Position numbers and translations under genes: made by a program. A stretch of 64,000 nucleotides of DNA, from the IMG/VR virus record IMGVR_UViG_3300047408_000067, positions 26,616 through 90,615 of that record, one strand, 5' to 3'. The notes under the pieces are model-generated. The model was not told where the DNA came from, made no database searches, and saw only the letters and a program-made list of their open reading frames with translations. This DNA is from a virus. The first letter of the stretch is position 1. Each line of letters begins with the position of its first letter. Positions 4,369 through 22,137 of the stretch are shown one piece after another.

Positions 4369-4384
4369 AGCTTTGTGTGCCTAC

Positions 4385-4840: not shown

Positions 4841-5171
4841 ACATGAAGATCCGCCAGTACAGATACTTACCCCTACGGCCTAATGTCCTGCGGTGGTACA
4901 CAGCACATATCGCGACGCTGTCAGGGAGCGTCACAACCGCCTTGATACCCCGCAGTATGGCACGCACACTACCGTAGCCCCCAAGCGAGTCGGTCCTCTT
5001 GATCTGGAACGCGTAGAGCTTGCGACCTATCCACACGTTGTCCAGAATCGACCTGCTCTGGCTGCTCCGTATCGCGACCAGGTGGTACGGGAGCTCCTCC
5101 CCTATCCTGCGTATCTCGTTCTCCTTGGTCTGGCCCCAGGCTTTTCTTGAGCCTTTTCTTGTCCACGCCAT
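4788..5171 (-). CDS. Hjc-like PD-(D/E)xK nuclease / Holliday junction resolvase
   Basis: G..KENEI...IRSSQS...D......FQIK pattern. Confidence 0.55.
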   Translation of the reverse strand: MAWTRKGSRKAWGQTKENEIRRIGEELPYHLVAIRSSQSRSILDNVWIGRKLYAFQIKRTDSLGGYGSVRAILRGIKAVVTLPDSVAICAVYHRRTLGRRGKYLYWRIFMYEEDYQKLREWAGVLAD

Positions 5172-5185
5172 GAGGCTTACTCCAA

Positions 5186-5716
5186 TCAGGATGGTACGAA
5201 GCAGGTTCTGCAGGTCCAGGGAAAGAACTTTGAAGACGGCCGTCTTTCCATAAGCCGTGGAGCTCTAAGAAGAGACGCCCTTCCATCACAGAGGGGGCAC
5301 CTAACACGAGGTATACGATTGTGTGCCCAGAATGTTCGCCTATGACGTTCGCTAATCCCTTCAGGGCATCCAAGGGACGCCGGGATTCCAAGTTTAGGAG
5401 AACGTAGAGTGGACTTGCAATGCACGCAGGTCCACACGTCTTGGTCAGGGGTTTGGGCCATGAGGCCCCATTGGTGATAGCGGCGCTTTGTGATCCAGGT
5501 ACGCTTTCTGAGGAACTCATTGTATGCTAGCGTCACTCCTTCCGGTGGAAACTTGATTACACAACCAAGGCATCGCTTGGGCGTTACCTTGATACCCTGA
5601 TAGTACGTGAGTAGGATGAAGCATGGACGGCCACACACCACACACGTTCTGCTCTGGCCGCTTTTGGACAGAGTGTAGTTGCTGTTCTTCAGGATGTGGT
5701 CCTCCACTTCAAACAC
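5186..5716 (-). CDS. multi-Zn-ribbon hypothetical protein
   Basis: CVVC, CLGC, CVHC, CPLC, CRTC motifs. Confidence 0.65.
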   Translation of the reverse strand: MFEVEDHILKNSNYTLSKSGQSRTCVVCGRPCFILLTYYQGIKVTPKRCLGCVIKFPPEGVTLAYNEFLRKRTWITKRRYHQWGLMAQTPDQDVWTCVHCKSTLRSPKLGIPASLGCPEGISERHRRTFWAHNRIPRVRCPLCDGRASLLRAPRLMERRPSSKFFPWTCRTCFVPS

Positions 5717-6278
5717 TAAGACCTCCCCATTGGTCAGCCATCGCTTCGGCTATACCAGGGAAAGTTACGCTTCGTATCTTGCCTCTGTCAACACTGGTTA
5801 CCATGTCGAAGAAGCGCGTCTGGAAGCGTTTGGGCACATACTTAGTAGGTCTCAGCAAGGGCAGGTGCCGGAGCCATAAATGTGTCTTCTTCTGCTCCGT
5901 GTCGCCAAACTGCCAGGGATGAATCATCTGGTCTGGCAGTCTAATGCGCGTGCTTATGAGACCCACAGGGTTCTCAATGCAGATATAGTATATAGGCGCA
6001 GCCATTAGCTCTCGCACAAACGCCAGTGCTTCTCGTGTCTTCGCTGGACGTCCAGGAGCACGGTACCACACTGCGCCTGATATTGCTAGGTACGTGCAGG
6101 GCGGATGCGCTACCATAAGGTCCCAGCCGTCGTGGAGTATATCCCGCACGTCTCCACGGTAGTGGTAGCCAGGGTTGGCTTCACTACGCGCCAAATCACA
6201 AGAGACAGCAAAATGGCCGCGACGCGCAAACGCATCACGTACACGACCACTAAACTCACAAGCAACCAATACCCGCAC
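5709..6278 (-). CDS. short DNA cytosine-C5 methyltransferase-like protein
   Basis: VLVACEFSG (motif I-like), AHPPC (motif IV), IENP (motif VI); only 189 aa. Confidence 0.7.
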   Translation of the reverse strand: MRVLVACEFSGRVRDAFARRGHFAVSCDLARSEANPGYHYRGDVRDILHDGWDLMVAHPPCTYLAISGAVWYRAPGRPAKTREALAFVRELMAAPIYYICIENPVGLISTRIRLPDQMIHPWQFGDTEQKKTHLWLRHLPLLRPTKYVPKRFQTRFFDMVTSVDRGKIRSVTFPGIAEAMADQWGGLSV

Positions 6279-6286
6279 ACCTACCC

Positions 6287-6316
6287 ACTATAGCCGCCTA
6301 GACTACTCCCCTGCAA
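6287..6316 (-). promoter_or_regulatory. sigma70-type promoter (leaderless or near-leaderless mRNA)
   Basis: TTGCAG-N18-TATAGT ending 8 nt before GTG at 6278. Confidence 0.6.
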
Positions 6317-6350
6317 TCTAGCTTTGAGTAGGTTTTGAGCAGTCCGTGAG

Positions 6351-6911
6351 CTAGGTGCCGCCACCCCGCCCTGAAGCAACGCGCATTTCTGCCATCCGCC
6401 ACATGCTCTCTCGATCCAGGGCATTGACGTACATCTGGAAGTCTTTGGTTAGGGCGTCAAGTGCTTCTTCCAAACGGATAAGGTTGTCTAACTCTCGCTC
6501 CAAGTTGGCAATGCGCTTGCTCGCCTGCACCTTACCCCAGAGTGCATCCACGTAGACTTTGCTGCTACGCTCGGGGGCAAATATGCGGAAGAGGCGCTTT
6601 TTGGATCTGTCTAATATACGCTCTTGCGCTTTCTTCTCACCCCTAGTTATCCCGAGCAATGCGTTCACTCGTGCAAATTGTGCTGCCCAATACGACTGTA
6701 GCGCACGTAGCTCACGCGGCTGAATCATTGTGATGTCGCTGGGAAATGCGTTGTCCTCAGTTATCTCGGGCATCTGCGCCGGAAACGGTATGCTCAAGCG
6801 CGCCAGAGTCTCAAGTAACTCGGTGCGCGGTACAACCAGTTCCAGGCTGCGGATCATACGTGGGGTCAGCGGGGCTACCGCCGCGAGGTTAGTATGGTCT
6901 TTAGTCGGCAT
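6351..6911 (-). CDS. helical coiled-coil hypothetical protein
   Basis: Amphipathic helices; AAGGAG upstream; in recombination gene block. Confidence 0.7.
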   Translation of the reverse strand: MPTKDHTNLAAVAPLTPRMIRSLELVVPRTELLETLARLSIPFPAQMPEITEDNAFPSDITMIQPRELRALQSYWAAQFARVNALLGITRGEKKAQERILDRSKKRLFRIFAPERSSKVYVDALWGKVQASKRIANLERELDNLIRLEEALDALTKDFQMYVNALDRESMWRMAEMRVASGRGGGT

Positions 6912-7092
6912 TTATCCACTCCTTGCCGCAGTCTTGCATGGGGCATCTAGCCAGCACCCCATCCGGAAGGTCGCTACCCCTAAATGTCTCAACGACGCTT
7001 CCGTCGTGTGGACAGACCAGTGCTACGACGAACCCACGCCGGTTCGCTATCAGTTGTGCCGTTACGAGCTTCTCCTGGTCTGCCTGGGTCAA
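6901..7092 (-). CDS. small Zn-ribbon protein
   Basis: Probable TTG start 7092; CPHD...CPMQDC; start uncertain. Confidence 0.45.
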   Translation of the reverse strand: MTQADQEKLVTAQLIANRRGFVVALVCPHDGSVVETFRGSDLPDGVLARCPMQDCGKEWINAD

Positions 7093-7477
7093 CGGTATAC
7101 TCTTCTCTTGGAAGTGCCCGACTGCGCTTCCTAGCGAGCTTCTCCGCCAGTTGAAGTCGACATACCCTGCAACCGGATAGACCTTCAAACGTCTTGGGGT
7201 TCTGGTGTTTCTTGTAGATACCCTTGAGGTGCCAGCAGGCATGGCAGAGTACTAGATGCCTCTTTCCAATTTGATGGTATTGCGGTACGTCCTTGTCGCT
7301 GCCGTTAGTGTAGTACCACTTGCGTTCCAGGCAGACATTGCAAGTGTAGTTGCTAATCTGGTCGAGTGTTGCGTCTCTAGTGGGGTAGAATTTTCCAGGA
7401 TTCTTGGCTTTCCATTTCTCACGCTCTTTGTAAAGCTGGAGCCAATACCTCTTTTGCCACAAAGCTAGGGTAACCAT
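6989..7477 (-). CDS. Zn-finger hypothetical protein
   Basis: CNVC, CHAC, CRVC; TACAAT -10 box 10 nt upstream of ATG. Confidence 0.65.
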   Translation of the reverse strand: MVTLALWQKRYWLQLYKEREKWKAKNPGKFYPTRDATLDQISNYTCNVCLERKWYYTNGSDKDVPQYHQIGKRHLVLCHACWHLKGIYKKHQNPKTFEGLSGCRVCRLQLAEKLARKRSRALPREEYTVDPGRPGEARNGTTDSEPAWVRRSTGLSTRRKRR

Positions 7478-7507
7478 GTATGCCTACATTGTACCCGCTG
7501 GGACGGT

Positions 7508-8326
7508 CTAGCCGCCAGCTTGCGTGATACGTAGACAGTTCAGGCTTTGACGGCAATTAGCGAACATACGATCCCCAGGCTGAACGTGGCCCTTGGAATC
7601 CATAGTGCAGCCGTGCTCTGGCAGCGTACCTTCCTGACGGTGCTTACGCAAGATCTTGTACTGAGCACGTAGCTGTGCGATCAGCTCTGGGTCCCGATTG
7701 ATGGGCAGCTCGAAGTACTCTTGCGTATTCTTGTTCTCGAACCAGAGGATCCCTTTGTTGATGTGGAGCGCCTGCATGTAGTTGTGCAGTTGCCAGCGGT
7801 ATCCCTGTAGATGCTCTGGTAGCTTGTGCGTTCTCTCCACTTCCTTGAAGGTAGCGTCGTTGGCACCCTTGACATCGATGACGTAAATTTCCCCACCTAT
7901 TTCCACCACGTCATCAGGTGTGCCCGCCACATACCACGGAAGATACTCTACAAGCTCCTCTTGCGCGTGTACAGTTAGGTACCCTGCCCGTTGCATACGC
8001 AGGAATATTGTGTGCCATCTAAGATGTCGCCAGTGGCCGTCGTCAAATAGACTGTTGGTACGTGGGTTCTCGTCTATCTTCCCTGGCATACCATTGATAG
8101 CAAGCATCTGCTCGCGTAGGCAGCGCTTAGACCCAGATGGGCTGAAGTAAGTGCGCTGTCTCGGTAGCTTACGGGCCAGAAGTAGTTTGGCTGCGAACGC
8201 AGCTTCCGTCTTACTAAAGTCACCCAAATCCTGGGTGATCATAAACTGGTCTACTAAGGGCGTCAGTATCTTAGTCGGGTCACGCCTGTTCTTCAGGTAC
8301 TTCTTTATGTCAAAGCCAGGAGACAT
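7508..8326 (-). CDS. Cas4-like PD-(D/E)xK exonuclease
   Basis: FSPSGSKRCLRE, G...H, GTPD...IDVK, QLHNYM, C-terminal Cys cluster. Confidence 0.8.
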   Translation of the reverse strand: MSPGFDIKKYLKNRRDPTKILTPLVDQFMITQDLGDFSKTEAAFAAKLLLARKLPRQRTYFSPSGSKRCLREQMLAINGMPGKIDENPRTNSLFDDGHWRHLRWHTIFLRMQRAGYLTVHAQEELVEYLPWYVAGTPDDVVEIGGEIYVIDVKGANDATFKEVERTHKLPEHLQGYRWQLHNYMQALHINKGILWFENKNTQEYFELPINRDPELIAQLRAQYKILRKHRQEGTLPEHGCTMDSKGHVQPGDRMFANCRQSLNCLRITQAGG

Positions 8327-8645
8327 CTCTACACTGCCTGCAAGAGTCCCTGTTGCACCCGTCAGTTTTGACAGGGAAACCCTTCTTTCTTAGGAACATA
8401 CTGTCACATTTGCTCAACAGGTGCGGGCTTGGGACCAAGATGATACGCTGCTCCGTCTTGGTGTCCTTGGTTTTGAACCACACCTTGCGCTTCGTCAGAA
8501 ACATCAGGCGGTAGTAGCTCTCGTACATCTCGTGGATCCAGGTGCTGCGCTCCCCCACTGGCATGTTCTTGGGCAGTATATATACCCACTTCAGGGTTTG
8601 AATGCTCGTGGGATCTCCCTGTATTGGAAACGCTCTCGCTTGCAT
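8310..8645 (-). CDS. hypothetical protein with C-terminal Cys motif
   Basis: ATG 8645 behind AGGA (start uncertain); CNRDSCRQC at end. Confidence 0.45.
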   Translation of the reverse strand: MQARAFPIQGDPTSIQTLKWVYILPKNMPVGERSTWIHEMYESYYRLMFLTKRKVWFKTKDTKTEQRIILVPSPHLLSKCDSMFLRKKGFPVKTDGCNRDSCRQCRDVSWL

Positions 8646-8781
8646 AGCAGTCCTGACATATGATGATCTGAGGCAGTGTGCAGCCAGACGGTCCCCGCCA
8701 CATGACACACGTCGCTCTTGGGTAGACAATAACCTCACACTCTATACAGCGTAGATTATAGTGTCTGTGGTAACCTGCCAC
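8404..8781 (-). CDS. Zn-finger hypothetical protein
   Basis: CIEC...CQDC; C-terminal half overlaps the next gene out of frame. Confidence 0.5.
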   Translation of the reverse strand: MAGYHRHYNLRCIECEVIVYPRATCVMWRGPSGCTLPQIIICQDCYASESVSNTGRSHEHSNPEVGIYTAQEHASGGAQHLDPRDVRELLPPDVSDEAQGVVQNQGHQDGAAYHLGPKPAPVEQM

Positions 8782-9071
8782 TACCCTACCAGTGTACCAC
8801 GGCGAGCGTTCTTTATGCGCGCTTGAATCGCACCAGTGTAGATCACGAACTTCTCAAACTGATCTTCCAGGTAGGCCAGTTCTTGAATCAGTTCGTCACG
8901 GGTGGGATGTTGGAAACCCTGCATACGTGAGCTTTCGATGTCGTCCTGACACATGACCACAAACTGTTTGAGAGCGTCGTAGCATCCCTGGAGAGACCCG
9001 TGGGAGGTCCCTGGCAAGATGGAAATATTGCACGACGGACAGACCAAGGGCGCAGTATCATGATCATTCAT
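8781..9071 (-). CDS. hypothetical protein (CPSC..H....C plus coiled coil)
   Basis: ATGA overlap with stop of 9068..9409. Confidence 0.6.
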   Translation of the reverse strand: MNDHDTAPLVCPSCNISILPGTSHGSLQGCYDALKQFVVMCQDDIESSRMQGFQHPTRDELIQELAYLEDQFEKFVIYTGAIQARIKNARRGTLVG

Positions 9072-11102: not shown

Positions 11103-14100
11103 CTACTTCGGTATCGGGTACTTCGCATCTTCGAACACAATGCTGTTCCTGTCAACTTGTCGCTTGCCATACACCAGAACGACTCGTCCTTTGAACAGAT
11201 TAGCGCCATGTTGTTCCCACCATTTCGGAAACACCACCACGTCCCAGGTACCCAACCCGTCGTATTTGACCTGGACGAAACCCATCTTGTAACCATTCTT
11301 CGTAGTGATTTCACGTACCCTATCCACTTGCCCGCCAACCCAACACCATTTATCCTGAGAGCTTGTTAGGGACTTCAGGTTCAAGGGCCTGCGAACCTTG
11401 CGGTCTAGAACAACGCGGTATTGATCTATGGGGTGGCTAGTCACATACGTACCCAAAAGTTCAAGCTCGGTTTGTCCTCGGTCTTCGTCTCCCTGTGTGC
11501 CAATGGTTTCAAAGGCACCTACTCTGCGTAATAGTTCAATGACGCGGACGTTGCATCTTCGTCGTGTTACTGTCCTCCTCAAATGTTCCTCGGAGGTGAA
11601 TGGCCTGTTCTCTACTAGCTCAGCGCAGGCTGTAACCCCTACACCCTTTATAGCAGTCAGGCCGTAGCGGATGCCACGTTTACCTTCCACGACAAATCCT
11701 GAACCTGACTTGTTTACGTCGGGTGGAAGGAAGCTAAGTCCAAAGAATAACTTCGCCTCGTCTATGTAGACAGGGTAGTCATCCTTATTGGCATAGCTCA
11801 GCAGGGTACAGAAAAACTGTGCTGGATAGTGTGTCTTGAGCCACGCTGTCTGGTACGCTAGTTTCGCGTATGCTGTCGCGTGGGCGCGGTTGAAGCCGTA
11901 CCCTCGGTAGTTCCATATCATGTCCCATATCTTTGTGGCTATTTCTAGGGTGCAACCGTTGTGCAATGCCCCTTGGGCTGCTCCCTTGGATTTGCCACTG
12001 AGCTTGTCGTAGAGTTCGCCCCCATTGAAGAACAGTGGCTTGAGTTCGTCCCATATGTCACCCTTCTTATACTTGATGGCCTCTTTCAGCTCGTCTACAA
12101 GGTGGTGATCGAATCCTCCGATTTGAAGTCCAATCTCCATGACTTGTTCCTGATATAGAACAACCCCCTGCGGTAAGATACGCCTGAGCCGTTTGTCTGG
12201 TAGCCTACGCCTGAGGTCTGTAGTTGCACCATCACGGCCTTCTCTATACTGCTCCACGAACTGGTTAGCACCACCGCGCCCGAGGGCCATGACAGCAATA
12301 AGGTCCTCAAAGCTCTGGAGTTGTAAATCTCGAACAACCTGCCTGGAAGTACCACCTTCAACCTGGAATACTCCCGAGCACGCACCTCTATTGAGAGTGG
12401 CCCAAACCGCTGGATCCTCGTACTCATACATCTCCGCAAATGGATCTTCCCCTATCAGATCAATGCAGTCTTGTATGACATCCAGTGTAGTCAGGCTCAG
12501 GATATCAAACTTCACCACACCTAGCCGCTTGAGACCGTCCATATCATACTGAGTCACTACAGCCGCTTGACCACGCCCCTGTCCACGCCCAACCATCATC
12601 GTTGGGACCAGTTTGCGTAGGTCGAACGCTTGGTCTGCAATAACTATGCCAGCAGCATGCTTGCCTTCGCCTGTGATGAGGTCCTGAGCTGTCGTAGCCC
12701 ACTCATAAAAGCTAGGGTAACTAACCATAGCCCCCTTTAGTACAGGGTGTAGATGCTCGTCTTGAAGCAGTTCCTTTAGGTCGCCACTAGCCTTCAGGTT
12801 GACGATGAGTGCTGCATCTGGCAGAGACTTACTTGCCGCAAATTGCTCGTTGCGCGGATACCCCAACGCCCCCAGGATGCGTTGTACTGTGCTCCGTGGG
12901 CCACCCCTGCCGAACGTACCTACTCGTTGGGATTGGTACGGTGCTTGATTATATCTGCTAAGTAGGTATTTGACGACTTCTTCGATCCTGCTGTGCGGGA
13001 AATCAACATCGAAGTCCGGGAGGCTTGGGCGCGCCGGATTGAGAGCACGCTCAAACATAAGATCATACCGCACAGGATCCACATCAACAATGCCCATAAG
13101 ATAGGCTGCGAGTACCCCCGCCATACTGCCACGGCCAGGGCCGACACGAATCCCACGAGACCTAGCCCAATCAATATAGTCGCGAACAATAAGAAACTCT
13201 TCTTCGAACGTACTGCCGAAGATGACGCCAAGCTCGTATTGTAGACGAGTCCGGTACGTCTCAATATCCTTTGCCAGCCCTCCACGTCTCTCCAGCACTC
13301 GCAACCTCTTTTCGCAGATTGCGCGCATATAGTCAGCAGACGATACTTCCGTATTCTCTCTTGGAGCAACTGGGATGTGCCAGCTTCTTTGCTCCAGTTC
13401 TGGGATACTGAGCTGTATATCGTCTGTGTACTCTCGTATAGTGCGCTGGCTAGCTGCCCATACTGCGGGTTGGTCTGCCCAGAGTGCTCGCATTTCAGAC
13501 GTTGTTTTGAGATGATATCCTGAGCCATCAAAGTGGAATCTGGTCGAATCCCTCCAAAGGGACATCGTCTGGCATGCCAGCCATATGTCGTGTACCGAAT
13601 GGTGCGATGCTTCAACGTAATGGCTGTCGTTGGTGATGACCAGTGGGAACCCGTACTTGTCGTGCCACCTGATAAGCCTGTTGTTGACCTTCTCCTGGTC
13701 ATCGTTAGCCCGCCTGTCGCCAGTGTTCTTCAGGTTATAGTCATGCCGCTGTAGCTCGAGATAGAAGTACGGGAACAGTTCCCTGAAATACTGAGCATAC
13801 TGGAGGGCCGTAGCGTTCTGGTTGGCTAGGATTAGCTGCGGTATTGGACCATTGAGACAAGTCGAGCTGGCGATAAGGTGTCGTCGGTCTTTCCGCGGTA
13901 TTGCTTCCAGCGTACTATAATCGACACGAGGCTTATAATAGAAGTGGCTAGGATCGTTCGCGGTACTGCTAAGTTCGCACAGTACCTCGTACCCTCGTCT
14001 GTCACGAGCAAGCAGTACCAGATGGTGCCGCCTAGGACCCTCTTTCTTGCCGGTCTCAGGATCAACTGTTCTGGTACGGTCAGTACAGTCATCGCAAAGA

Positions 14101-14306
14101 TAGAATTCCTGCCCCACAATAGGTCGAACGTCAGCCTTTCGGCACGCCTGGTAAAACTCAGGAACTCCAGACATGCGTCCATGATCTGTAATTGCGAGAG
14201 CTGACTGCCCATCATCTTTGGCTTTCTGGACCAGATCCGGTATGCGTGATAGCCCGTCTAGCACGCTATACTCTGTGTGGTTGTGTAGGTGAACGTATTT
14301 ACTCAT
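11103..14306 (-). CDS. dnaE: DNA polymerase III alpha subunit (family C)
   Basis: PHP motifs HLHNHTEYSVLDG, TDHG, NDSHY; GPGRGS; catalytic PDFDVD; KFDIL; YGFNRAHA; OB fold; start moved to MSKYVHLH. Confidence 0.95.
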   Translation of the reverse strand: MSKYVHLHNHTEYSVLDGLSRIPDLVQKAKDDGQSALAITDHGRMSGVPEFYQACRKADVRPIVGQEFYLCDDCTDRTRTVDPETGKKEGPRRHHLVLLARDRRGYEVLCELSSTANDPSHFYYKPRVDYSTLEAIPRKDRRHLIASSTCLNGPIPQLILANQNATALQYAQYFRELFPYFYLELQRHDYNLKNTGDRRANDDQEKVNNRLIRWHDKYGFPLVITNDSHYVEASHHSVHDIWLACQTMSLWRDSTRFHFDGSGYHLKTTSEMRALWADQPAVWAASQRTIREYTDDIQLSIPELEQRSWHIPVAPRENTEVSSADYMRAICEKRLRVLERRGGLAKDIETYRTRLQYELGVIFGSTFEEEFLIVRDYIDWARSRGIRVGPGRGSMAGVLAAYLMGIVDVDPVRYDLMFERALNPARPSLPDFDVDFPHSRIEEVVKYLLSRYNQAPYQSQRVGTFGRGGPRSTVQRILGALGYPRNEQFAASKSLPDAALIVNLKASGDLKELLQDEHLHPVLKGAMVSYPSFYEWATTAQDLITGEGKHAAGIVIADQAFDLRKLVPTMMVGRGQGRGQAAVVTQYDMDGLKRLGVVKFDILSLTTLDVIQDCIDLIGEDPFAEMYEYEDPAVWATLNRGACSGVFQVEGGTSRQVVRDLQLQSFEDLIAVMALGRGGANQFVEQYREGRDGATTDLRRRLPDKRLRRILPQGVVLYQEQVMEIGLQIGGFDHHLVDELKEAIKYKKGDIWDELKPLFFNGGELYDKLSGKSKGAAQGALHNGCTLEIATKIWDMIWNYRGYGFNRAHATAYAKLAYQTAWLKTHYPAQFFCTLLSYANKDDYPVYIDEAKLFFGLSFLPPDVNKSGSGFVVEGKRGIRYGLTAIKGVGVTACAELVENRPFTSEEHLRRTVTRRRCNVRVIELLRRVGAFETIGTQGDEDRGQTELELLGTYVTSHPIDQYRVVLDRKVRRPLNLKSLTSSQDKWCWVGGQVDRVREITTKNGYKMGFVQVKYDGLGTWDVVVFPKWWEQHGANLFKGRVVLVYGKRQVDRNSIVFEDAKYPIPK

Positions 14307-14691
14307 GGGGCCAAGACGCTGCTTCCTCTTGCGTAGCATCACGAGACGGTGCCTTGGTTGCTCTACTTTGGCTGCCGCCCATAGTATATTGTACCTTATC
14401 GCCACCTGCGGATGCACACCTGTACGCATGAGGCATCGGGACCTGCTCGTCCAAGAACATCCACGCACTGCACTCCACGCAGGCAGCAGATGGACGCACT
14501 AGATTCTGGTGGCTCACTGACTCAGTACCAATTTGCAGATACTGAAGGCAGTGGTTACACCAGATCTTACCCTTGGGGGCGTCTTCTCTTGGCTGGAGTA
14601 TACTTCCTGGGGTGTATCTTTCGTGCAGCAAGTAGCTCCCTGGCTTGTTCATTATCACTGGTAAGAAAGAGTCCTGTTGTGGGATCGACAT
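14299..14691 (-). CDS. Zn-ribbon hypothetical protein, start unresolved
   Basis: WCNHC...CVEC; N-terminal part overlaps 14567..14767. Confidence 0.4.
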   Translation of the reverse strand: MSIPQQDSFLPVIMNKPGSYLLHERYTPGSILQPREDAPKGKIWCNHCLQYLQIGTESVSHQNLVRPSAACVECSAWMFLDEQVPMPHAYRCASAGGDKVQYTMGGSQSRATKAPSRDATQEEAASWPHE

Positions 14692-14767
14692 AGCCCTCTA
14701 TTCCTCGCGCTTTTAGTTGCTGGTCAACGAACTCGGACGGTAACATCAAGCCATTGGGAGTAGGCAT
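14567..14767 (-). CDS. hypothetical protein (66 aa)
   Basis: TGATG overlap with the 3D-domain gene; MPTPNGLMLPSEF... Confidence 0.55.
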   Translation of the reverse strand: MPTPNGLMLPSEFVDQQLKARGIEGYVDPTTGLFLTSDNEQARELLAARKIHPRKYTPAKRRRPQG

Positions 14768-15126
14768 CACCACCCCCATCGCATAACGGTAACCCAAGCG
14801 TAGGTTCCGTAAGCTTTCTCTACGTTCTCTATGCCCCATGCGTAGCTTGGTGCCCACACATCTACTTGGTACTTGCTGAGATAACCAGTGTCTTCACACG
14901 TGACTACCCAATCGTCCTCTACGAATTTGAGCTGAGTACCAGCAGGAAAGTAGCTTCCGCAAGCCGCCGCACCGAGATGGGTTTGGTTGCCCCATCGCAT
15001 CGTGCCACGGACATTATAGAACGTCAGTCGGACGTGTTCCTGCCACAAGCCTTCGTCATCTGCATGCGCTATAGGCGTGACTGCGGATAACATGATAGCG
15101 AGCAGGGCTGCGCGCAAAACTGCCAT
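14767..15126 (-). CDS. secreted 3D-domain (MltA-like) cell-wall protein
   Basis: Signal peptide ending AHA; LTFY...G...AA...FPAGT.....EDTG.....VDVW. Confidence 0.7.
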   Translation of the reverse strand: MAVLRAALLAIMLSAVTPIAHADDEGLWQEHVRLTFYNVRGTMRWGNQTHLGAAACGSYFPAGTQLKFVEDDWVVTCEDTGYLSKYQVDVWAPSYAWGIENVEKAYGTYAWVTVMRWGW

Positions 15127-15132
15127 GTAGGC

Positions 15133-15161
15133 AGTGTAACATTTCTGTAACTAGGATGCAG
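15133..15161 (-). promoter_or_regulatory. extended -10 promoter, leaderless transcript for the 3D gene
   Basis: CTGCAT-N17-TACACT with TGn; ATG follows 6 nt later; no SD. Confidence 0.55.
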
Positions 15162-16077
15162 GTGTGTACTTACGAGTAGCGGATCTACTAGGTGTGCCAT
15201 CCGGATTGGCATGGTATCTGGCACGAGAGTACTTCTGGAACTCACACAGGGAGTGTTCTACGCCGCGCAGGGTCATCTGGTATCCTGGCCAGACTTGATG
15301 CCATTCAACCAGTCTATCAATCCCCTCAATAAAGGTCTCCTGCCTAGCCTGTAGAAACGCGATATAATCTTCCCATTTGATTCCAGAGTTACGCGCACCC
15401 CAGATCCAGAGAATCCCACGCTTACACCCAGGTCCGGCGTTGACCCAATCATTCTCACTAAAGTCCACAAGTCTAGAATAGTTGACGTCAATGGCAAGCT
15501 CGTACGCCAAGAACCGCCCGAACCCTTGTGTGTCATTGAAGATCTGCCATACCTGTTTCAGCGACTTCGCAGACGTAATAGCCCGTAGTAGTGCTGGTGT
15601 TTGCTTTTGTAGCCTGCCCACTAGCCAGCAGATGTTCCTGATTTTGTCTGGAAAGCCACCAAACTTCACGCCAGTAACAGTAAAGGCATCCGTAAACACC
15701 CGACTGCCGTGATTCTCGTAGGCGTTTAGATATCTGGCTGCCCGCTCCCAATCCCAAGCTCCCCACCGTGTCATCTTGCAGCGCAACCACAGGAACCTGA
15801 AGGTATCAATGTCGTTGAACAGTCTGTACACCATGATGGCGAACAGCATGTCTTTGTCATCCTGTATCCGCAGTATGTTGCGGATGAGGAAGATGGTACC
15901 TTTGTCCAGTTCTCTGTAGACGTTGGTGAAGAAGTATTGCTTCAGTACAGGGTCGACAGTCCAAGGGGCTGGCATTTGGAGTTCCATGCGTCTGTAGTAG
16001 ATTGCTTGTCTTTCAACAACAAAGTTCCAGAACGCAGCCATCTTGTCTTGTCGGTAGGCAGGCAGTATGTTGGGCAT
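15151..16077 (-). CDS. 5-hmdU DNA kinase (aGPT-Pplase1 family)
   Basis: FWNFVVERQAIY, PWTVDPVL..Y.FTNVYRELDKGT, YRLFN, G.G.FLAYE...D..Y, NAGPG..RG, EHSLCEFQKY. Confidence 0.85.
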   Translation of the reverse strand: MPNILPAYRQDKMAAFWNFVVERQAIYYRRMELQMPAPWTVDPVLKQYFFTNVYRELDKGTIFLIRNILRIQDDKDMLFAIMVYRLFNDIDTFRFLWLRCKMTRWGAWDWERAARYLNAYENHGSRVFTDAFTVTGVKFGGFPDKIRNICWLVGRLQKQTPALLRAITSAKSLKQVWQIFNDTQGFGRFLAYELAIDVNYSRLVDFSENDWVNAGPGCKRGILWIWGARNSGIKWEDYIAFLQARQETFIEGIDRLVEWHQVWPGYQMTLRGVEHSLCEFQKYSRARYHANPDGTPSRSATRKYTPAS

Positions 16078-17078
16078 TAGATGAATGCTAGATGGGACTT
16101 ATCGTCCGCAAGCTCCTCGTTCATGACGTCGTGGTAGACGTGGAATCTGCAGTCATAGAAGTCACATTCTGGAATGATAACTCGCTGCATGGCTGCGCGG
16201 TGTGATTCACTATACCAGAGATCGCGGAATCCATTACCTCCATTTGTGGAGAGTGCGCCAATGGAGATATCCTCAATACGGTCCTGATAGTAACAGCACA
16301 CCCACACTGTGCCGAGTGCGTCGATAACAGTGTGTAGCGGGGAAAGCCAACATTGTCCATTCTGATGAGTCTTAGCAATACCACCGAAGACTCTTCCAGG
16401 GTATCTAGCTCCAAGCTCCTGAATGGTATCTTGAATAGCCCGCTTGTCTTCCTCAGGTAGGAGTTCAGGATCGTCGTTGCAATGGCGCTTCGCCTTGATG
16501 CTAACGTAGTCAACTCCGGCATCTAGTATCTCCTCCGTGAGGTATTCGACTGCTGCCACACTGCTGCTACCAAGCAGGATTTTCCCACCAATCCTACAAC
16601 TAGAGTTCCTACTATCACGTTCCTGGACAATTCGTCGAACGTTGTCCAGTTGGTTGACAGTATAAACAGAGACCCGAATGTAGCGGCTTCCAGCATAAGC
16701 CAGAACATGAACACAAGCATCTGGGCGGGTTCCGTTCGTGATCATCCCGAATTGGAGATTATTGCTAGCGACGATATCAACAAGATCGCGAAACCTAGGG
16801 TGAAGAGTAGGTTCTCCACCTCCGGAAAACTCAAGGGACTCGCCGCCCATCTCGCTAAAATCACGAACGAAACTATCAAAGACGCTGACACCAAGGCTTG
16901 CAGGTCGTGCATTCTCAGCGTTAGAGATGCAGCCAAAACAGCGCATATTGCAACTGTACGTAGGATATACGATCGCCATTGTGGGGGCAACCATCTCATC
17001 GCGCTTGAGCTTGACCGCATCTTTGCGAAAGCTGAGTATCTTGGTGCGTAGATCTACTGGTGCGTATTGCGGAATCAC
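16077..17078 (-). CDS. radical SAM enzyme with SPASM/twitch domain
   Basis: CNMRCFGC, FSGGGEP, ITNG; C-terminal C...G.V.VCC...IG...LW...C....C; GTG start behind GGAGG overlapping GT stop. Confidence 0.9.
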   Translation of the reverse strand: MIPQYAPVDLRTKILSFRKDAVKLKRDEMVAPTMAIVYPTYSCNMRCFGCISNAENARPASLGVSVFDSFVRDFSEMGGESLEFSGGGEPTLHPRFRDLVDIVASNNLQFGMITNGTRPDACVHVLAYAGSRYIRVSVYTVNQLDNVRRIVQERDSRNSSCRIGGKILLGSSSVAAVEYLTEEILDAGVDYVSIKAKRHCNDDPELLPEEDKRAIQDTIQELGARYPGRVFGGIAKTHQNGQCWLSPLHTVIDALGTVWVCCYYQDRIEDISIGALSTNGGNGFRDLWYSESHRAAMQRVIIPECDFYDCRFHVYHDVMNEELADDKSHLAFI

Positions 17079-18538
17079 CCGAATGCCTCCAACCATGCCC
17101 TTGCCACGCCGCTAACAAACTTCATCCATCTCCCGTCTTGTGTAGGTTGAGAAGACAAGACTTGCAGCAGGGCTTCGCTACCCATAGCCGCAATTTCTGC
17201 CTGTGCCTCTTCCTCTAGTTCTTCTTCGTCTTCCTCTGGCTCAACGTCTGCCACTGCTAGTGCGGCGACTGGTATGTTTCGGGAAGTGAATACCTCTTGA
17301 CGCTCAACCATTTCGATTTCAGGAATGGGATCATCACAGACGTTATCCCAAAAGCTAGGGCTAACGACACCAGGGTGATGTCCATACTCCAGTCCGTTTT
17401 CAAGGTGGTCGAGTATCGTTGCCGCGTGTACCCTGGCATCACTGTACTCCCGCACAAACTCGATTGCTCTGTAGGCTATGCGCCGTTGAAGGCGTACATC
17501 TGCCATCAATTCGTTGAGTCTTTCGGCGATGCCTTGAGAAGAAGGTGGTAGTCCCCACGTAACGTCGACCTGGGACAGCGGACTCCACCTGTGTTCTTGT
17601 ACTCTTGTGGAGACGGCAGATACACAGCCATACAGCATGGCTTCGAGCATGACGCAGGACGTCTGGCCGTCGAACCTCTGTCCGCCAATAGAGCCGCTGA
17701 GATCCACGCTAACGTTATGCTGGCGATAAATACCAGGAAGTTCTGCTGGAAGCTGCGCCCCCCAATATTGGTGATCAGCTCGCCCACGGCCACGGCGCTG
17801 AGCAACGTGGTCAAGACCAATGCCATCTTTCCAACCCGCACCCACCTTGTTCCTGGCATTATGGTACTCGATGCCAGCGTTGTACAGATCAACAGGATAC
17901 TCAATGTTGGGTAGGGCCTTGATGAACGGATAGATACCTTTCCATTTCTTCCATTGCGGCATCCAGCAAATTGCGCCAGTTTTGTCTGGTAAGCACAAAC
18001 CCGCCTCTCTGGTATCTAGGGGGGTTGGCAGAAACACGAAGTGTCCGGGCAGCCTCGCCAGGGAGTCGTACTTGGATTGATAGCACGTAAACATGTGAAG
18101 GCTCACCAAGTCCGACACTTGACGATACCACGGGTAGTAGCTGTCCCACAGGTTGTCGTGAATCATCACCATGATTGGCAGGCCCGCGTCGGCTGCTTCC
18201 TGATACAGCATCATCCACGACATATCACCAGTGTTGGACTTGATATCATGTGGGCATGGCAGCATGAACATGACCACGTCGTAGTCGCGCAGTAGTTGAC
18301 GATACTGTCTCCTGGCCTCGTCTCCCTTGTAGGCCAGTTGCCTAGCGGGTAGCCTGTAGTACCTGTGGTTGACCATCGTAGGGGCGTCTGGACTAAGGCT
18401 GCGCACCTTACCTGCCCTGCTAGCCCAATAGTAGTCGAACGTGCAACCGATAGCCTCTAGACCATACTGCAACCCTTCGACTATGCGGTTTATCCCACCA
18501 CGCTCTATGATTTCAAAGTCAATTACCAGGAATCTCAT
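17075..18538 (-). CDS. GT-B fold glycosyltransferase (GT4-like), putative DNA glycosyltransferase
   Basis: N-terminal RGGI..IV.GL..GL...G; WKKWKGI; MLEAMLYGC; acidic C-terminal extension. Confidence 0.8.
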   Translation of the reverse strand: MRFLVIDFEIIERGGINRIVEGLQYGLEAIGCTFDYYWASRAGKVRSLSPDAPTMVNHRYYRLPARQLAYKGDEARRQYRQLLRDYDVVMFMLPCPHDIKSNTGDMSWMMLYQEAADAGLPIMVMIHDNLWDSYYPWYRQVSDLVSLHMFTCYQSKYDSLARLPGHFVFLPTPLDTREAGLCLPDKTGAICWMPQWKKWKGIYPFIKALPNIEYPVDLYNAGIEYHNARNKVGAGWKDGIGLDHVAQRRGRGRADHQYWGAQLPAELPGIYRQHNVSVDLSGSIGGQRFDGQTSCVMLEAMLYGCVSAVSTRVQEHRWSPLSQVDVTWGLPPSSQGIAERLNELMADVRLQRRIAYRAIEFVREYSDARVHAATILDHLENGLEYGHHPGVVSPSFWDNVCDDPIPEIEMVERQEVFTSRNIPVAALAVADVEPEEDEEELEEEAQAEIAAMGSEALLQVLSSQPTQDGRWMKFVSGVARAWLEAFG

Positions 18539-19080
18539 ACGGGTAGTTTATCACCTATTGGGGTCTGGTTCAAGGCGACTTCCTGCCGTATATCGATGTC
18601 CTGAACCTGGTACAGTAGATAGTCAGCAGCGGACTCGAGGCTGTCCAGCACTACAAGACTCATAGCCCGCCATGCCGCATAGTCTACGATCCCGCCCGTG
18701 AGATCCACAGTGATAACAGGTTTGCCCCAAGCATAAGCAACACCGATTTCGTGAGCAGAGTCAATTGACGTGTATCCTGGGTAGATGCAAGATAGCACAA
18801 AGTCACTATCGTGGATGAGACGTAGGTTGCGAGGAATGTAGAAGCCAGCTCTGCTGGTAGCCACCCCATCGCGATAAGCATTCGGGGCACGAGGATGAAG
18901 CCACAGTACACTACCAACGAGCCGATCGATATCCGCACGAGGGCGAGTATAATCCGGAGGGACTTTCTGCGCGGCCCATACGGCTCCAATGGTTTCACGT
19001 ACCAGATCCCTGTACAGCGTCTCTAACTGGTGTCGCCATCCAACCTGCATAGTGCCCGACGTGTATGGGCTGACTATCAC
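18535..19080 (-). CDS. nucleoside 2-deoxyribosyltransferase-like / nucleotide N-glycosidase
   Basis: Y.SG.M...WR; LHPR; IHDSDFVL; S...AHEIGVAYAWGKPVI. Confidence 0.75.
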   Translation of the reverse strand: MIVSPYTSGTMQVGWRHQLETLYRDLVRETIGAVWAAQKVPPDYTRPRADIDRLVGSVLWLHPRAPNAYRDGVATSRAGFYIPRNLRLIHDSDFVLSCIYPGYTSIDSAHEIGVAYAWGKPVITVDLTGGIVDYAAWRAMSLVVLDSLESAADYLLYQVQDIDIRQEVALNQTPIGDKLPV

Positions 19081-19505
19081 TCCTGCTTGTCCCTTCTATC
19101 GTCATCATCGTCGACGAAATTGAGACCAAACCACGCCAAGCACATCATGGTCCGGATAAGGACGTCGTAAAACGTGCCCGTCAGTTTGTCCTTATCCCAC
19201 TTCATGACAGCGCCACTTTCGCTAGCAGAATCAAGACGGTACAGCTTGTCTTTCAGGTCTACCAATGCCGTGATAGGCCCATCTTTCTGCCACGCGTCTT
19301 TGTACTGCTGGTTTTTCTGATACACCAGCGTGTCGTAATCTATCAGCGCCATTGCTAACTGTGAATTGATCTCGGTCAGCCACAGTTGTGACTCATAGCG
19401 CTCGTCCGTCGGGTCTAGCCCAAGGACGTGCTCTGCGAACTGGTCCAGTAGCCACCCTTGCTTGATGTCTACCCGTTGCATGTCTGCTGGTGTAACGATC
19501 TTCAC
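19077..19505 (-). CDS. Nmad1/DUF1599-like all-helical nucleotide-modification-associated protein
   Basis: QKNQQYKDAWQKDG.....DLKDKLYRL....TFYD; GTG start behind GGAGG. Confidence 0.65.
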   Translation of the reverse strand: MKIVTPADMQRVDIKQGWLLDQFAEHVLGLDPTDERYESQLWLTEINSQLAMALIDYDTLVYQKNQQYKDAWQKDGPITALVDLKDKLYRLDSASESGAVMKWDKDKLTGTFYDVLIRTMMCLAWFGLNFVDDDDDRRDKQE

Positions 19506-19519
19506 GATTGCCCTCCAGA

Positions 19520-19550
19520 TAAACAAACGGGGCAGGTACCGTGCCTACCC
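19520..19550 (-). terminator. possible terminator/processing hairpin ahead of the modification operon
   Basis: GGGTAGG/CCTGCCC stem followed by CGTTTGTTTAT on minus strand. Confidence 0.35.
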
Positions 19551-19585
19551 ACCCCGCTGTTTCCCACCCTATGTGCGGGTCTAGA

Positions 19586-20695
19586 CTACGCTTCCTGCAA
19601 CGCTGCTACCCTGCGGCGTTCCCGCTTGGGCATAACACGGTGACAGGTCTCGCAGATGCTGTGATGCTGAACAATGTTGCCGCCCACCCGCATCAGCCTG
19701 CGGACAAGGCTTGGATCCTCGAGCACCCGACTGTAGTTGCTCGCCACGTAGGTCACGTGGTTTGCCAGTTGGTACAGGTTCTCCACAGGGTGGTTGACCA
19801 GCCTGTTGCGGATCATATCACGAACAGCGGGTGGGATGCCAAAGTCCTGAAGCATGGCAGCCAGCTCTTCGTCCGTATGGGTGCCGACCGCCACGTCCTT
19901 CAACGCCTTGAAGCGGTCCACTTCAGTCTCCACCTTGTTGAGGATGGTGGGTACGTTGGTGGTGATCCACTCCTTGTCGTCGGCCTCGTCGGCTCGCTTG
20001 GTGTAGTGCATGACGTTTTGGGTGCTGGTCATCCCGTTCGTACACACCAGTCGTTCCCAATAGCCAGATAGATCAAGACCGAGACCAGTACCACCAGGGG
20101 CACTGTATCCGTACGGGCTAACGTACAACTGGACTCCGCTAGCCACGATGTCGTTGACCTTAGCACCCTGATTACCGCCCTCCAGGCGCTGGTAATCCTT
20201 GCCGCCCATGTTGTATTCACTGCCGCCCACCAGGGAGATGTACTGGCGATCTTGCGTTCCCCAGACCTTGTAACCCTTGACGTGCTTGCGGCCACCCATT
20301 GCACGTTCTACGGTGCGCATGTAGTCGAGCGGGTCGCGTACTTCGACCTTCCCGTCAATGATGGCTTGAATCTCACCCTCACGAGTAAGTGCCTTCAGGT
20401 TGCCCTGGCGCTCCCTGAAGCTGTAATCGAGCAGACCCACAACGTGTGCTTGCGCATCGGTGCCCATGTACTTGAGCATGCTGTTGGTCTGTAGCCCGCT
20501 AACGCGGAACAACGTGTCCCAGGCGCTTGCGCCCAGAGGCATTACGTCGTCCTTGTTGCCGAAGCGGTACTGCACCTTGCCGTTGGTACCGACCTGGAGG
20601 CCGTAGCTGTCGTCTGGGGCAAACTGGCGTTCCTCAAGCCCGCTAAAGGGCAGGAGCGTCTGCAGCGCCGTTTCACGATCAACCATCTGTGTCAT
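19586..20695 (-). CDS. DUF932-like protein
   Basis: G....S..G.....RLVCTNGM motif; helical C-terminus NLYQLANHVT. Confidence 0.65.
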   Translation of the reverse strand: MTQMVDRETALQTLLPFSGLEERQFAPDDSYGLQVGTNGKVQYRFGNKDDVMPLGASAWDTLFRVSGLQTNSMLKYMGTDAQAHVVGLLDYSFRERQGNLKALTREGEIQAIIDGKVEVRDPLDYMRTVERAMGGRKHVKGYKVWGTQDRQYISLVGGSEYNMGGKDYQRLEGGNQGAKVNDIVASGVQLYVSPYGYSAPGGTGLGLDLSGYWERLVCTNGMTSTQNVMHYTKRADEADDKEWITTNVPTILNKVETEVDRFKALKDVAVGTHTDEELAAMLQDFGIPPAVRDMIRNRLVNHPVENLYQLANHVTYVASNYSRVLEDPSLVRRLMRVGGNIVQHHSICETCHRVMPKRERRRVAALQEA

Positions 20696-21012: not shown

Positions 21013-22026
21013 TCAGCGTCTGCTGCCGAGGGGGCGTTTCGCGCTGGACGCGGGACGGGTTGGCGCTTTGGTAGTCTTCCGCCGTGGAGCTTCTTCCTCT
21101 TCGTCTTCGTCCTCATCCTCGTCTTCATCACCATCCTCGTCCTCGTCCTCGTCGTCCTCCTCTACTACTGCTGCTGCTTTGCGCCCTCTTGCGGTGGCTG
21201 GCTTGCGAGCCGGGCGCTCTTCTTCTTCAGCTTCCTCATCTTCTTCTTCGTCTGATTCTTCCTCTTCGTCATCCTCGTCCTCGTCGGGTTCAACCCGACG
21301 GCTCTTGGTAGTGGTGGCCTTGCCCTTGGCTACCGTCTTACGTGGGGGAGCCTCCTCCTCGTCCTCGTCTTCCTCCTCCACGTCCTCCACGTCCTCATCA
21401 TCATCTTCGTCACCGATGCCCTCGGCGCGGGCCTTCATGGCGCGGCCACCACCGTAGTAGCTCTGAGCCTGTTGGTCGAGATAGCCTTCAATGTCGATCA
21501 GCTTGAGGTTGCGCTGGTCGAAGGCCTCTTTCTCCTCGGCTTCGATATGGTACTTGGTGTCGGTGCCTTCGCCGGTCCGAGTGATGCTGTAATCGCGGTC
21601 CATGATGGTGCCGCGTCGCTCGTACTTGATGATGAGGTTCTCGACCATTGCACCCGTGAGCTTGAGAAGCCGCACCTGCTTGCTATCGCGGTCCCACACG
21701 TTGACGTACCAACGCTTACCCGCACGGATGTCGCCGTCCAGGCGGCAGTTCTCGATGCACGGGACATACGCACCGTTCCCGCCTCCGCCCCCAGGGACAT
21801 AGTGCTCGCCGTACTCCACCCACGGATTGCGCTTGTTGAACGGCTCGTGCAGGAAGCGCACTGTTCGTGCTTCGCCTTCCTTGAACGTCAAGCGCACATT
21901 CGGCATCTGCTTTGCCGAGTCTCGCATGCTCTTGGCATCTTCGTGTGCCACGGTACGCACCTTGATGGTCTTGGGTGCGTCAACTTCGCTCTTGCCGTTA
22001 CGGGCAAACGTGCTTTTTACTGCCAT
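21013..22026 (-). CDS. gp32-like single-stranded DNA-binding protein with very long charged tail
   Basis: VRFL...H......C...C; DRDYSITRTGEGTDTKY; next to primase; RBS GAGGA before ATG 22026 (longer start 22131 possible). Confidence 0.75.
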   Translation of the reverse strand: MAVKSTFARNGKSEVDAPKTIKVRTVAHEDAKSMRDSAKQMPNVRLTFKEGEARTVRFLHEPFNKRNPWVEYGEHYVPGGGGGNGAYVPCIENCRLDGDIRAGKRWYVNVWDRDSKQVRLLKLTGAMVENLIIKYERRGTIMDRDYSITRTGEGTDTKYHIEAEEKEAFDQRNLKLIDIEGYLDQQAQSYYGGGRAMKARAEGIGDEDDDEDVEDVEEEDEDEEEAPPRKTVAKGKATTTKSRRVEPDEDEDDEEEESDEEEDEEAEEEERPARKPATARGRKAAAVVEEDDEDEDEDGDEDEDEDEDEEEEAPRRKTTKAPTRPASSAKRPLGSRR

Positions 22027-22137
22027 ACTGTCCTCGTCTTCGTATACATTTCTACCAAATCCTCTTGAACGCGGCTGGTCTACACGAGTAGACGCTTCCC
22101 TCCTGTGCTCTGAGTACTCTAGCCTAGCCATACCTAA

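Follow-up and report, generated by a model that had tools for sequence, protein, structure and literature searches.

We analysed a 64,000-nucleotide stretch (the window), bases 26616–90615 of the IMG/VR virus record IMGVR_UViG_3300047408_000067, which is 90,615 bp long, has direct terminal repeats and is estimated to be complete. On its minus strand, at 15151–19505, the window carries a five-gene operon encoding an Nmad1/DUF1599-like protein, a nucleoside 2-deoxyribosyltransferase (NDT)-like protein, a GT-B glycosyltransferase (GT), a radical S-adenosylmethionine (radical SAM) enzyme and a clade 1 aGPT-Pplase (aGPT-Pplase1, or Pplase1). We favour, with moderate confidence, kinase-independent glycosylation of 5-hydroxymethyluracil (hmU) in DNA, followed by radical-SAM tailoring, as the role of this module. 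Three kinds of observation bear on it: the families of the genes, the absence of a kinase and of a clade 2 transferase from the genome, and the recurrent association of the same genes in other phages. The genes concerned, including a homologue of thymidylate synthase (TS) outside the operon, are as follows.

19077–19505, minus strand: Nmad1/DUF1599-like small helical protein (from the open reading frame (ORF), the gene junction and transitive homology)
18535–19080, minus strand: NDT-superfamily protein, 181 aa (from a sub-cut-off PF05014 match, Atlas and alignment of a Glu)
17075–18538, minus strand: GT-B (GT4-like) glycosyltransferase, 487 aa, candidate DNA hmU glycosyltransferase (from predicted fold and context)
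16077–17078, minus strand: radical SAM enzyme with a twitch-like (shortened SPASM) domain (from PF04055, PF13186 and Cys motifs)
15151–16077, minus strand: aGPT-Pplase clade 1 (PF18723, 'HMUDK_hel'), DNA-glycosylase-like with a helix-hairpin-helix (HhH), 308 aa (from PF18723, fold and Cys278-Glu279)
3202–4368, minus strand: TS homologue, predicted deoxyuridine monophosphate (dUMP) hydroxymethylase (PF00303, E 1e-21; 11 kb downstream, on the operon's strand)

In their longest forms the five minus-strand ORFs span 19077–19526, 18535–19080, 17075–18538, 16077–17096 and 15151–16077, and successive genes are joined by GTGA, ATGA, GTGA and TAATG overlaps. The radical SAM gene probably starts at the GTG at 17078, within the GTGA overlap; the upstream ATG at 17096 gives the longest ORF (339 aa) and would turn the third junction into a 22-nt overlap. 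The first gene likely starts at a GTG at 19505, behind a GGAGG box (its longest ORF begins at 19526), which agrees with the end of the operon given in a preliminary description of this DNA. When scanned with the alignment of the GT, IMG/VR yielded seven loci of the same phage lineage (retrieved loci are cited by numbers preceded by L), two of them cut inside the block. The five genes stand in identical order in each of the five loci in which the block is complete; L008, the most distant of them, shares 55% identity in the GT, 61% in the radical SAM protein and 37% in Pplase1. Because the order is kept in every block-spanning locus, including distant L008, we regard the operon as real. ORF reading, junction reading and five-locus synteny agree on the five overlapping genes and on the order in which the preliminary description had placed them. 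Four of its family labels also stand (Nmad1 transitively, deoxyribosyltransferase-like moderately, GT-B and radical SAM), whereas the fifth, a 5-hydroxymethyldeoxyuridine (5-hmdU) DNA kinase, does not.

The fifth gene is an aGPT-Pplase of clade 1, not a kinase. Its 308-aa product matches PF18723 at E 7.2e-68 (229 bits, cut-off 25; profile positions 4–275 of 281) and PHROG 2396 at E 2e-57, and contains no Walker A motif ([AG]xxxxGK[ST]). The structural model, built from 34 sequences with a predicted local distance difference test (pLDDT) of 90.8, consists of helices only, without a beta-sheet. The top VIA match of this model was PUGT of phage PaMx11 (8z2n; Z 10.9, root-mean-square deviation (rmsd) 4.0, 220 residues aligned). 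Ranks 1–41 were occupied by PUGT, DUF2419 queuine-salvage enzymes and DNA glycosylases (Ogg, EndoIII, AlkA), one of these 41 rows being an unnamed Pyrococcus protein, after which Z was 3.7. Sequence searches of solved structures returned designed repeat proteins only and were uninformative. All 34 clade 1 sequences of the alignment have C278, E279 and K282, and Glu274-His275 is nearly invariant. Cys278 aligns with the Cys of a clade 2 protein; clade 2 transferases require that Cys and a Glu close to it (Lee 2021, PMC8989533; here and below, statements from cited papers refer to the accessible portions of those texts). The 308-aa protein is a paralogue of the clade 2 transferase.

Characterised and annotated relatives separate this family from the kinase. 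In the Stenotrophomonas phage Sonora, the match of the window protein is a stand-alone 320-aa PF18723 gene annotated as alpha-glutamyl/putrescinyl thymine pyrophosphorylase, and it adjoins a separate 211-aa P-loop protein that matches PF18748 at E 2e-15 and served as our control kinase. The M6-type cassette, as listed in the SN1 genome note, comprises Nmad5, aGPT-Pplase1, a nucleotide kinase, a radical SAM enzyme, a pyridoxal phosphate enzyme and aGPT-Pplase2. SP10 gp186 is a fusion of an N-terminal kinase with a C-terminal aG/PT-PPlase1 (Lee 2018 Table 3), and with its C-terminus deleted the kinase domain alone still phosphorylates hmU (Lee 2021, PMC8989533). The Pfam name 'HMUDK_hel' for PF18723 probably derives from the SP10 kinase–Pplase1 fusion, and it invites mis-annotation of PF18723 proteins as kinases. 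We also observed the SP10 gp186-type arrangement in two retrieved loci (L117:7185-8939 and L131:7212-8963), each with a single ORF of ~584 aa in which an N-terminal PF18748 match (E 3e-21 and 2e-23, respectively) is followed by a part that clusters with aGPT-Pplase1.

We found neither enzyme of the characterised pathways elsewhere in the genome. PF18748, the P-loop 5-hmdU DNA kinase family, gave no candidate in the complete sequence of 90,615 bp (threshold E<=10), and the Walker A motifs of this genome are confined to helicases, RecA and two unlikely ORFs. For PF18724 (aGPT-Pplase2), the whole genome returned only an echo of ~14 bits (14.5, cut-off 26.2) on the 308-aa gene itself, which extends to the rest of the genome the absence of aGPT-Pplase2 reported earlier from the window. 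The preliminary description had envisaged that hmU is phosphorylated in DNA and that the phosphate is retained or displaced, yielding glycosyl- or glycosyl-phospho-hmU. The current Pfam name of PF18723 does include 'kinase', and phosphate is present in SP-15-type bases; but PF18723 is a helical HhH family, and in SP10 gp186 it is the P-loop half that acts as the kinase (Lee 2021, Lee 2018). With neither Walker A nor beta-sheet in the window protein, no PF18748 in the genome, and a kinase and a GT together in none of the 77 loci surveyed below, we consider this route very unlikely. Glycosyl-phospho-hmU built on kinase-made 5-phosphomethyldeoxyuridine (5-PmdU) is in particular unlikely, because the genome has no 5-hmdU DNA kinase and the supposed kinase gene is a transferase paralogue.

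The product of the third gene had no match in Pfam, PHROG or NCBIfam, and its assignment comes from structure prediction. The AlphaFold2 model (pLDDT 76.3, built from 18 homologues) has a GT-B fold and matched GT4 enzymes in Foldseek at E 4e-11. With VIA-align, residues 1–382 gave Z 26.3 to PimA, 26.2 to DNA-bound T4 alpha-glucosyltransferase (AGT) and 26.1 to TarM, the superposition on T4 AGT having an rmsd of 3.2 over 333 aligned residues at a sequence identity of 12–14%. PF00534 is present in one homologue, 58% identical. The modelled fold thus confirms the 487-aa protein as a predicted GT-B glycosyltransferase. A search with tblastn of 50,697 GenBank phage records found no homologue of the GT, and its BLAST homologues adjoin aGPT-Pplase1 in other phage lineages. 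Beyond the GT-B core the protein extends over residues ~390–487 (window 17075–17365, minus strand): residues 421–467 are acidic and disordered (pLDDT below 50) and are followed by a conserved amphipathic C-terminal helix, an arrangement kept across the lineage. A partner protein could dock on this helix; a prediction of a GT–Pplase1 complex, run without controls, scored 0.00 against a mark of 0.32, a value that speaks neither for nor against binding.

The acceptor of this enzyme might be something other than DNA. If the GT-B enzyme targets a virion protein, a polymer of the host envelope or a small molecule, its presence among these genes would be incidental and the DNA would contain hmU or T. 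The fold matches to PimA, TarM, BshA and HepE equal that to T4 AGT, and some homologues are annotated by the Joint Genome Institute as cell-wall glycosyltransferases. Yet ATGA and GTGA overlaps couple translation of this gene to that of both neighbours, synteny holds down to 55% identity, and related GT-B genes adjoin Pplase1 and TS in other lineages, so that we judge a non-DNA acceptor to be distinctly improbable.

The fourth gene product is confirmed, at the level of sequence, as a predicted radical SAM enzyme with a SPASM/twitch domain. It matched PF04055 at E 3e-12 (47 bits, cut-off 29.5) and PF13186 (SPASM) at 21.6 bits against a cut-off of 21.5, and a CX3CX2C motif (CNMRCFGC) and four C-terminal Cys are invariant across 15 aligned sequences. 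Four C-terminal Cys ligands suggest one auxiliary cluster, and we read the domain as twitch-like. The nearest solved structure by sequence was DesII (E 2e-4), and NCBIfam gave weak matches to DesII (E 6.5e-7) and BlsE (E 1.2e-5) that span only the shared core. Structure matches to 'Pizza' proteins were rejected as spurious. In the GenBank phage records, tblastn with the radical SAM protein recovered only two uncultured phages, at 22% identity.

To judge the source of hmU, we examined the TS homologue. The preliminary description had placed a dUMP-type TS homologue at 3202–4368, and PF00303 matches there as listed above. Among solved structures the CMP hydroxymethylase MilA is its nearest relative (E 2.4e-17), ordinary thymidylate synthases following at E 7e-9. 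PMC13326640 names four diagnostic residues (E. coli positions): a catalytic Cys, Asn177, Asp169 and a residue other than Leu at 143. Read against alignments of TS and MilA, the motif DRACN...RSNDAVWGIPYN of the window protein shows the hydroxymethylase pattern. The catalytic Cys is kept; Asn occupies position 177 as in thymidylate synthases, which use dUMP, whereas MilA has Asp; and Asp replaces Leu143, three residues before the Cys, as in MilA. Position 169 is Asp, and the protein is therefore not a 5-hydroxy-dCMP synthase. Among 57 related TS sequences, 13 were parsed by regular expression; all 13 have Asp at both 143 and 169, and 11 have Asn177. The homologue is 27–36% identical to TS genes that flank aGPT-Pplase1 elsewhere, including those of the kinase-bearing loci L098 and L104. 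We consider a uracil-specific dUMP hydroxymethylase a reasonable prediction for this gene.

The first two genes were assigned from weaker similarities. The aGPT-Pplase and Nmad domains were reportedly defined by Iyer et al. in 2013. PF07659 (DUF1599) matched neither the window's own Nmad1-like protein nor any other part of the genome, and an Atlas lead of 0.88 pointed to DUF1599 clusters. The L002 orthologue is linked by BLAST to ORFs in L110 and L130 (E 8e-7 and 7e-5), which are small ORFs of other hypermodification loci. In a seven-member family alignment, PF07659 matches four members (best E 5e-12), and K56, N57, Y60, W64, K79 and R82 are invariant. A relationship of the first gene to Nmad1/DUF1599 is thus supported by transitive homology only. 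The 181-aa product of the second gene matched PF05014 (Nuc_deoxyrib_tr) at E 2e-4 and 21.8 bits, under the cut-off of 28.8, and Atlas linked it to viral NDT clusters at 0.93, with 201 features in common. The Glu of its 'HEIG' motif aligns with the Glu of an N-deoxyribosyltransferase (PDB 6evs, E 0.089). Its likeness to nucleoside deoxyribosyltransferases is moderately supported, and we infer that it may act as a (deoxy)nucleotide N-glycosidase that helps to shape the pyrimidine pool. In the 77-locus survey this gene was confined to the window's phage lineage.

Taken at face value, these relatives could suggest the early steps of a pathway like those of mildiomycin or blasticidin, in which a MilA-type hydroxymethylase, a MilB-type N-glycosidase, a GT and a radical SAM enzyme would yield a free modified nucleoside. 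MilA is indeed the nearest solved relative of the TS homologue, the NDT superfamily includes MilB-type hydrolases, and the weak NCBIfam matches of the radical SAM protein are to the sugar-nucleotide enzymes DesII and BlsE. We consider this extremely unlikely. The TS homologue has Asn and not MilA's Asp at the specificity position, and the fetched TS genes closest to it include those in the kinase-bearing clusters of L098 and L104; aGPT-Pplase1 has a DNA-glycosylase fold; the NDT-like gene is restricted to one lineage; and the radical SAM matches cover the shared core alone.

We next consider how often these genes keep company. A scan of IMG/VR with the clade 1 alignment confirmed at least 552 relatives of Pplase1, from which the best 80 loci were retained. 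The 77 loci that were clustered comprised 74 foreign loci plus L002, L008 and phage LuckyBarnes, and cluster representatives were named by Pfam. The following genes were found near aGPT-Pplase1.

TS homologue: 56 of 77 loci
TET-associated glycosyltransferase (TAGT): 27 of 77 loci
HD-domain 5'-deoxynucleotidase-like: 20 of 77 loci
Radical SAM/SPASM cluster: 13 of 77 loci
GT-B cluster that includes the orthologues of this GT: 11 of 77 loci
ADDT: 11 of 77 loci
P-loop kinase: 11 of 77 loci
FkbM methyltransferase: 7 of 77 loci

GT-B genes homologous to this GT, or TAGT genes, thus recur beside Pplase1 and TS across many phage contigs of unrelated origin, often with a radical SAM/SPASM gene. The closest parallel is L116, where a run at 4087–8945 of a complete 109.7-kb virus record contains a HAD/APH-like gene (weak matches, E 0.0025–0.006), a cytidylyltransferase, a GT-B, a radical SAM gene and Pplase1, so that the GT-B/radical SAM/Pplase1 order of the operon recurs; this record has no PF18748 kinase. 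In tblastn searches of the GenBank phages, the L116 radical SAM protein matched one uncultured record and the L116 GT none. A HAD/APH-like enzyme, a cytidylyltransferase and a GT-B are all needed to heptosylate 5-hydroxymethylcytosine (5hmC, or hmC) in DNA (Pyle et al.), and the L116 run looks like a sugar-nucleotide-supplied version of the operon's module type. Other orders were Pplase1, GT-B, radical SAM, TS (L152); Pplase1, GT-B, an unknown gene, radical SAM, TS, HD (L119); TS, Pplase1, TAGT and a radical SAM gene of the operon's type (L165; 27% identity over 346 residues, E 6e-33); and TS, TAGT, TAGT, Pplase1 (PF18723) in LuckyBarnes. This context supports the earlier suggestion of a sugar-bearing hypermodified thymidine made without aGPT-Pplase2, while the kinase mechanism attached to it falls away.

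We then asked whether a kinase might lie beyond the retrieved loci. A PF18748 search of 50 whole records (47 foreign Pplase1 records plus L002, L008 and LuckyBarnes) was positive in 14, including 3 of the 8 Pplase1 records that are at least 90% complete; the family was found in none of the 18 GT-bearing foreign records and in none of L002, L008 and LuckyBarnes. At the level of loci, a glycosyltransferase occurs in 38 of 77 and a kinase or ADDT in 15, the two never together (Fisher p 1.2e-5, a value that is only descriptive because the loci are not phylogenetically independent, for a count drawn from the best 80 matches to the clade 1 alignment).

These limits of the exclusivity count weigh against kinase-independent glycosylation of hmU in DNA, as do several further points. 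The DNA acceptor rests on context, because the fold of the GT fits lipid and cell-wall GT4 enzymes equally well. The TS gene lies 11 kb off and is not adjacent to the operon; family searches of the genome found no dCMP deaminase and no dUTPase, so complete replacement of T is not assured. The L116 GT joins the cluster of this GT through intermediates, with no direct BLAST link. Finally, the bacterial relatives of the radical SAM protein (78 loci fetched, 44 analysed), which come at ~33% identity from Desulfarculaceae, Hydrogenedentota, Nitrospirota, Zixibacteria and other metagenome-assembled genomes (L011-L050), adjoin B12-binding radical SAM genes in 24 of 44 loci and not sugar genes. An unknown 190-aa protein stands beside them in 17 of the 44. 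These bacterial neighbourhoods, an unrelated and unexplained gene set, are uninformative on the substrate of the phage enzyme.

A second sample of 50 records, chosen through the clade 2 transferase, bears on the role of Pplase1. Pplase1 was present in 36 of the 50 and a TS homologue in 27, 26 of which also had Pplase1. Five of the 50 carried Tet_JBP, and none of these had Pplase1 or TS. In records at least 90% complete, Pplase1 was present in all nine with TS and in neither of the two without. Pplase1 accompanies pre-replicative, TS-made hmU, whatever the decoration. In the lysate reaction that makes the glycinyl-thymidine intermediate, M6 gp55 is dispensable (Lee 2021, PMC8989533); we take gp55 as the clade 1 copy because the table of that paper names gp51 clade 2. 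The tracking of TS-made hmU and the dispensability of gp55 together suggest a role on hmU itself. Such phages turn hmU into a hypermodified base or back to thymine before packaging (Lee 2021, PMC8989533), and we infer that Pplase1 may perform the reversion of hmU to thymine.

Pplase1 could instead act first and install a linker. It would put a small metabolite with a hydroxyl or an amine on hmU (unphosphorylated or otherwise activated), the GT-B enzyme would glycosylate this linker and the radical SAM enzyme would reshape it, yielding a linker-plus-sugar thymidine like those of SP-15 and YerA41. Several facts fit: the Cys and Glu essential in clade 2 fall, when aligned, on the Cys278 and Glu that never vary in clade 1, Pplase1 has PaMx11 PUGT as its best structural match, SP10 has only the clade 1 domain, kinase-fused (Lee 2018 Table 3), and linker-plus-sugar thymidines are known in SP-15, YerA41 and Carin-5. 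The dispensability of M6 gp55 for the glycinyl-thymidine intermediate speaks against it, and PF18748 and Walker A searches revealed no activating enzyme in the genome. Pplase1 is also found with every decoration type and is therefore unlikely to set the decoration. We regard a linker-first route as unlikely.

To our knowledge, all solved thymidine hypermodification pathways open with two enzymes, a DNA kinase and a transferase of amino acids or diamines. The operon has neither, and its pathway would therefore lack the activation step of the solved examples. In the kinase-independent scheme that we favour, every substrate, the order of the steps and the product are predicted. The TS homologue would produce 5-hydroxymethyl-dUMP, and the Nmad1-like and deoxyribosyltransferase-like proteins would bias the pyrimidine nucleotide pool, a job that seems to be held by HD nucleotidase genes in other lineages. 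The phage replisome would put hmU in the place of T. T4 glucosyltransferases act on hmC and JGT on hmU; here, the GT-B enzyme would take a sugar from a host nucleoside diphosphate sugar and attach it to hmU in DNA, at the hydroxymethyl group. Next, the twitch radical SAM enzyme may remodel the sugar or the linkage on the polymer. The aGPT-Pplase1, as a Cys-dependent HhH enzyme, would attack C6 of hmU or of a derivative, a role tied to TS-made hmU.

A more specific proposal for Pplase1 is tentative, and we consider it rather unlikely. The protein would be the common kinase-independent enzyme of all phages with TS-made hmU, Cys278 opening hmU or its glycoside at C6 to give an exocyclic methylene. 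In this operon, together with the radical SAM enzyme, the reaction would convert an O-linked sugar to a stabler linkage or an oxidised sugar; elsewhere, undecorated hmU would become thymine. If this is true, the product of the Pplase1 and radical SAM conversion would belong to a class of DNA base without a described example.

Compared with known systems, the operon is a variant of the sugar-type and TS-type thymidine systems, to which it adds a lineage with a polymerase III alpha and with NDT-like and Nmad1-like partners. It resembles the phages with a 5-hydroxymethyluracil DNA kinase (5-HMUDK) and transferase (M6, PaMx11, ViI, PhiW-14, SP10, SH-Ab 15599) in its TS-homologue source of hmU, its clade 1 aGPT-Pplase and its location in the replication module; their cassettes contain Nmad-family genes, and some of their clusters (M6) also contain a radical SAM gene. 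Unlike them, it has neither PF18748 nor PF18724, and a GT-B stands in their place; moreover, tblastn with its radical SAM protein missed the M6-like phages present among the 50,697 GenBank records. With T4 AGT and the GT-B DNA glycosyltransferases of Pyle et al. it shares the GT-B fold and a pre-replicative TS-type hydroxymethylase. However, since Asn is retained at the specificity position of the TS homologue, we predict hmU and not hmC as the acceptor, and the GT gene is coupled to radical SAM and aGPT-Pplase1 genes.

Base J (made by JBP and JGT) is alike in that the predicted core product here is a glycosyl-oxymethyl-uracil in DNA obtained without a kinase. It differs in that hmU would here be made before replication by the TS homologue and not by a dioxygenase (Tet_JBP was not searched for in this genome), in its GT-A JGT where the operon has a GT-B (Pyle et al.), and in having no radical SAM or Pplase1 step. 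Sugar-bearing thymidines occur in SP-15, YerA41 and Carin-5, and sugar-derived ones in Pbunavirus F8 and 14-1; the genes for their biosynthesis are unsolved, and these phages have PolA-UDG or PB1-type replication modules and other candidate genes, unlike the phage studied here. For Carin-5, a block of sugar-modifying and glycosyltransferase genes has been proposed for the sugar-bearing thymidine.

Our text search of the literature found no paper on the set of GT, radical SAM and aGPT-Pplase1, supplementary figures being outside its scope. Pyle et al. tallied GT and ThyS associations in bulk, and the terms 'radical SAM' and 'Pplase' occur 0 times in the main text of that paper; 'Glycosyltransferase' does not occur in Lee 2021 (PMC8989533). 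Because the operon and its relatives in uncultured phages lack the kinase and transferase and carry glycosyltransferases, they point to an uncharacterised family of sugar-bearing thymines. All four TS-type thymidine-hypermodifying phages studied share aGPT-Pplase1 (Lee 2018 Table 3), and operons free of kinase and transferase offer a clean setting for learning its function. New DNA-acting glycosyltransferases and radical SAM enzymes would also be of interest for phage counter-defence, restriction-resistant DNA and the sequencing of modified genomes.

The operon sits in the replication module, between the gene for DNA polymerase III alpha (11103–14468) and a primase/DnaB block. Its other flank consists of a 369-aa gene, a gene labelled SSB-like in the preliminary description, primase and the DnaB helicase. 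A blastn search with the operon for relatives in cultured phages returned no match. Between the 369-aa gene and the operon we noted one further element.

19526–19558, minus strand: terminator-like hairpin, 13 pairs of which 7 are G-C, followed by a T-rich tail

This hairpin is a consensus match only, and terminator-like sites in the region are not above shuffled sequence (4 against a mean of 4.4). At the downstream end, a 119-aa ORF (window 14767–15126, minus strand) with a hydrophobic, signal-like N-terminus lies 21 nt past the Pplase1 stop and has no Pfam or PHROG match. It is kept after the operon in L002-L006 (46–82% identity); in L008 we did not find it. The ORF may be part of the operon transcript but looks unrelated to DNA chemistry. 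In the interval between operon and primase, the gene labelled SSB-like (window 21013–22131, minus strand) encodes a 372-aa protein without a Pfam match, in whose very long tail acidic tracts alternate with basic ones. The 369-aa gene (window 19586–20695, minus strand), which lies upstream of the operon, has PHROG 1362, of unknown function, as its sole match. In 8 of the 77 loci, LuckyBarnes among them, the neighbourhood of aGPT-Pplase1 includes a DUF932 protein of similar size (examples are L010:7625-8626 and L151:14786-15814).

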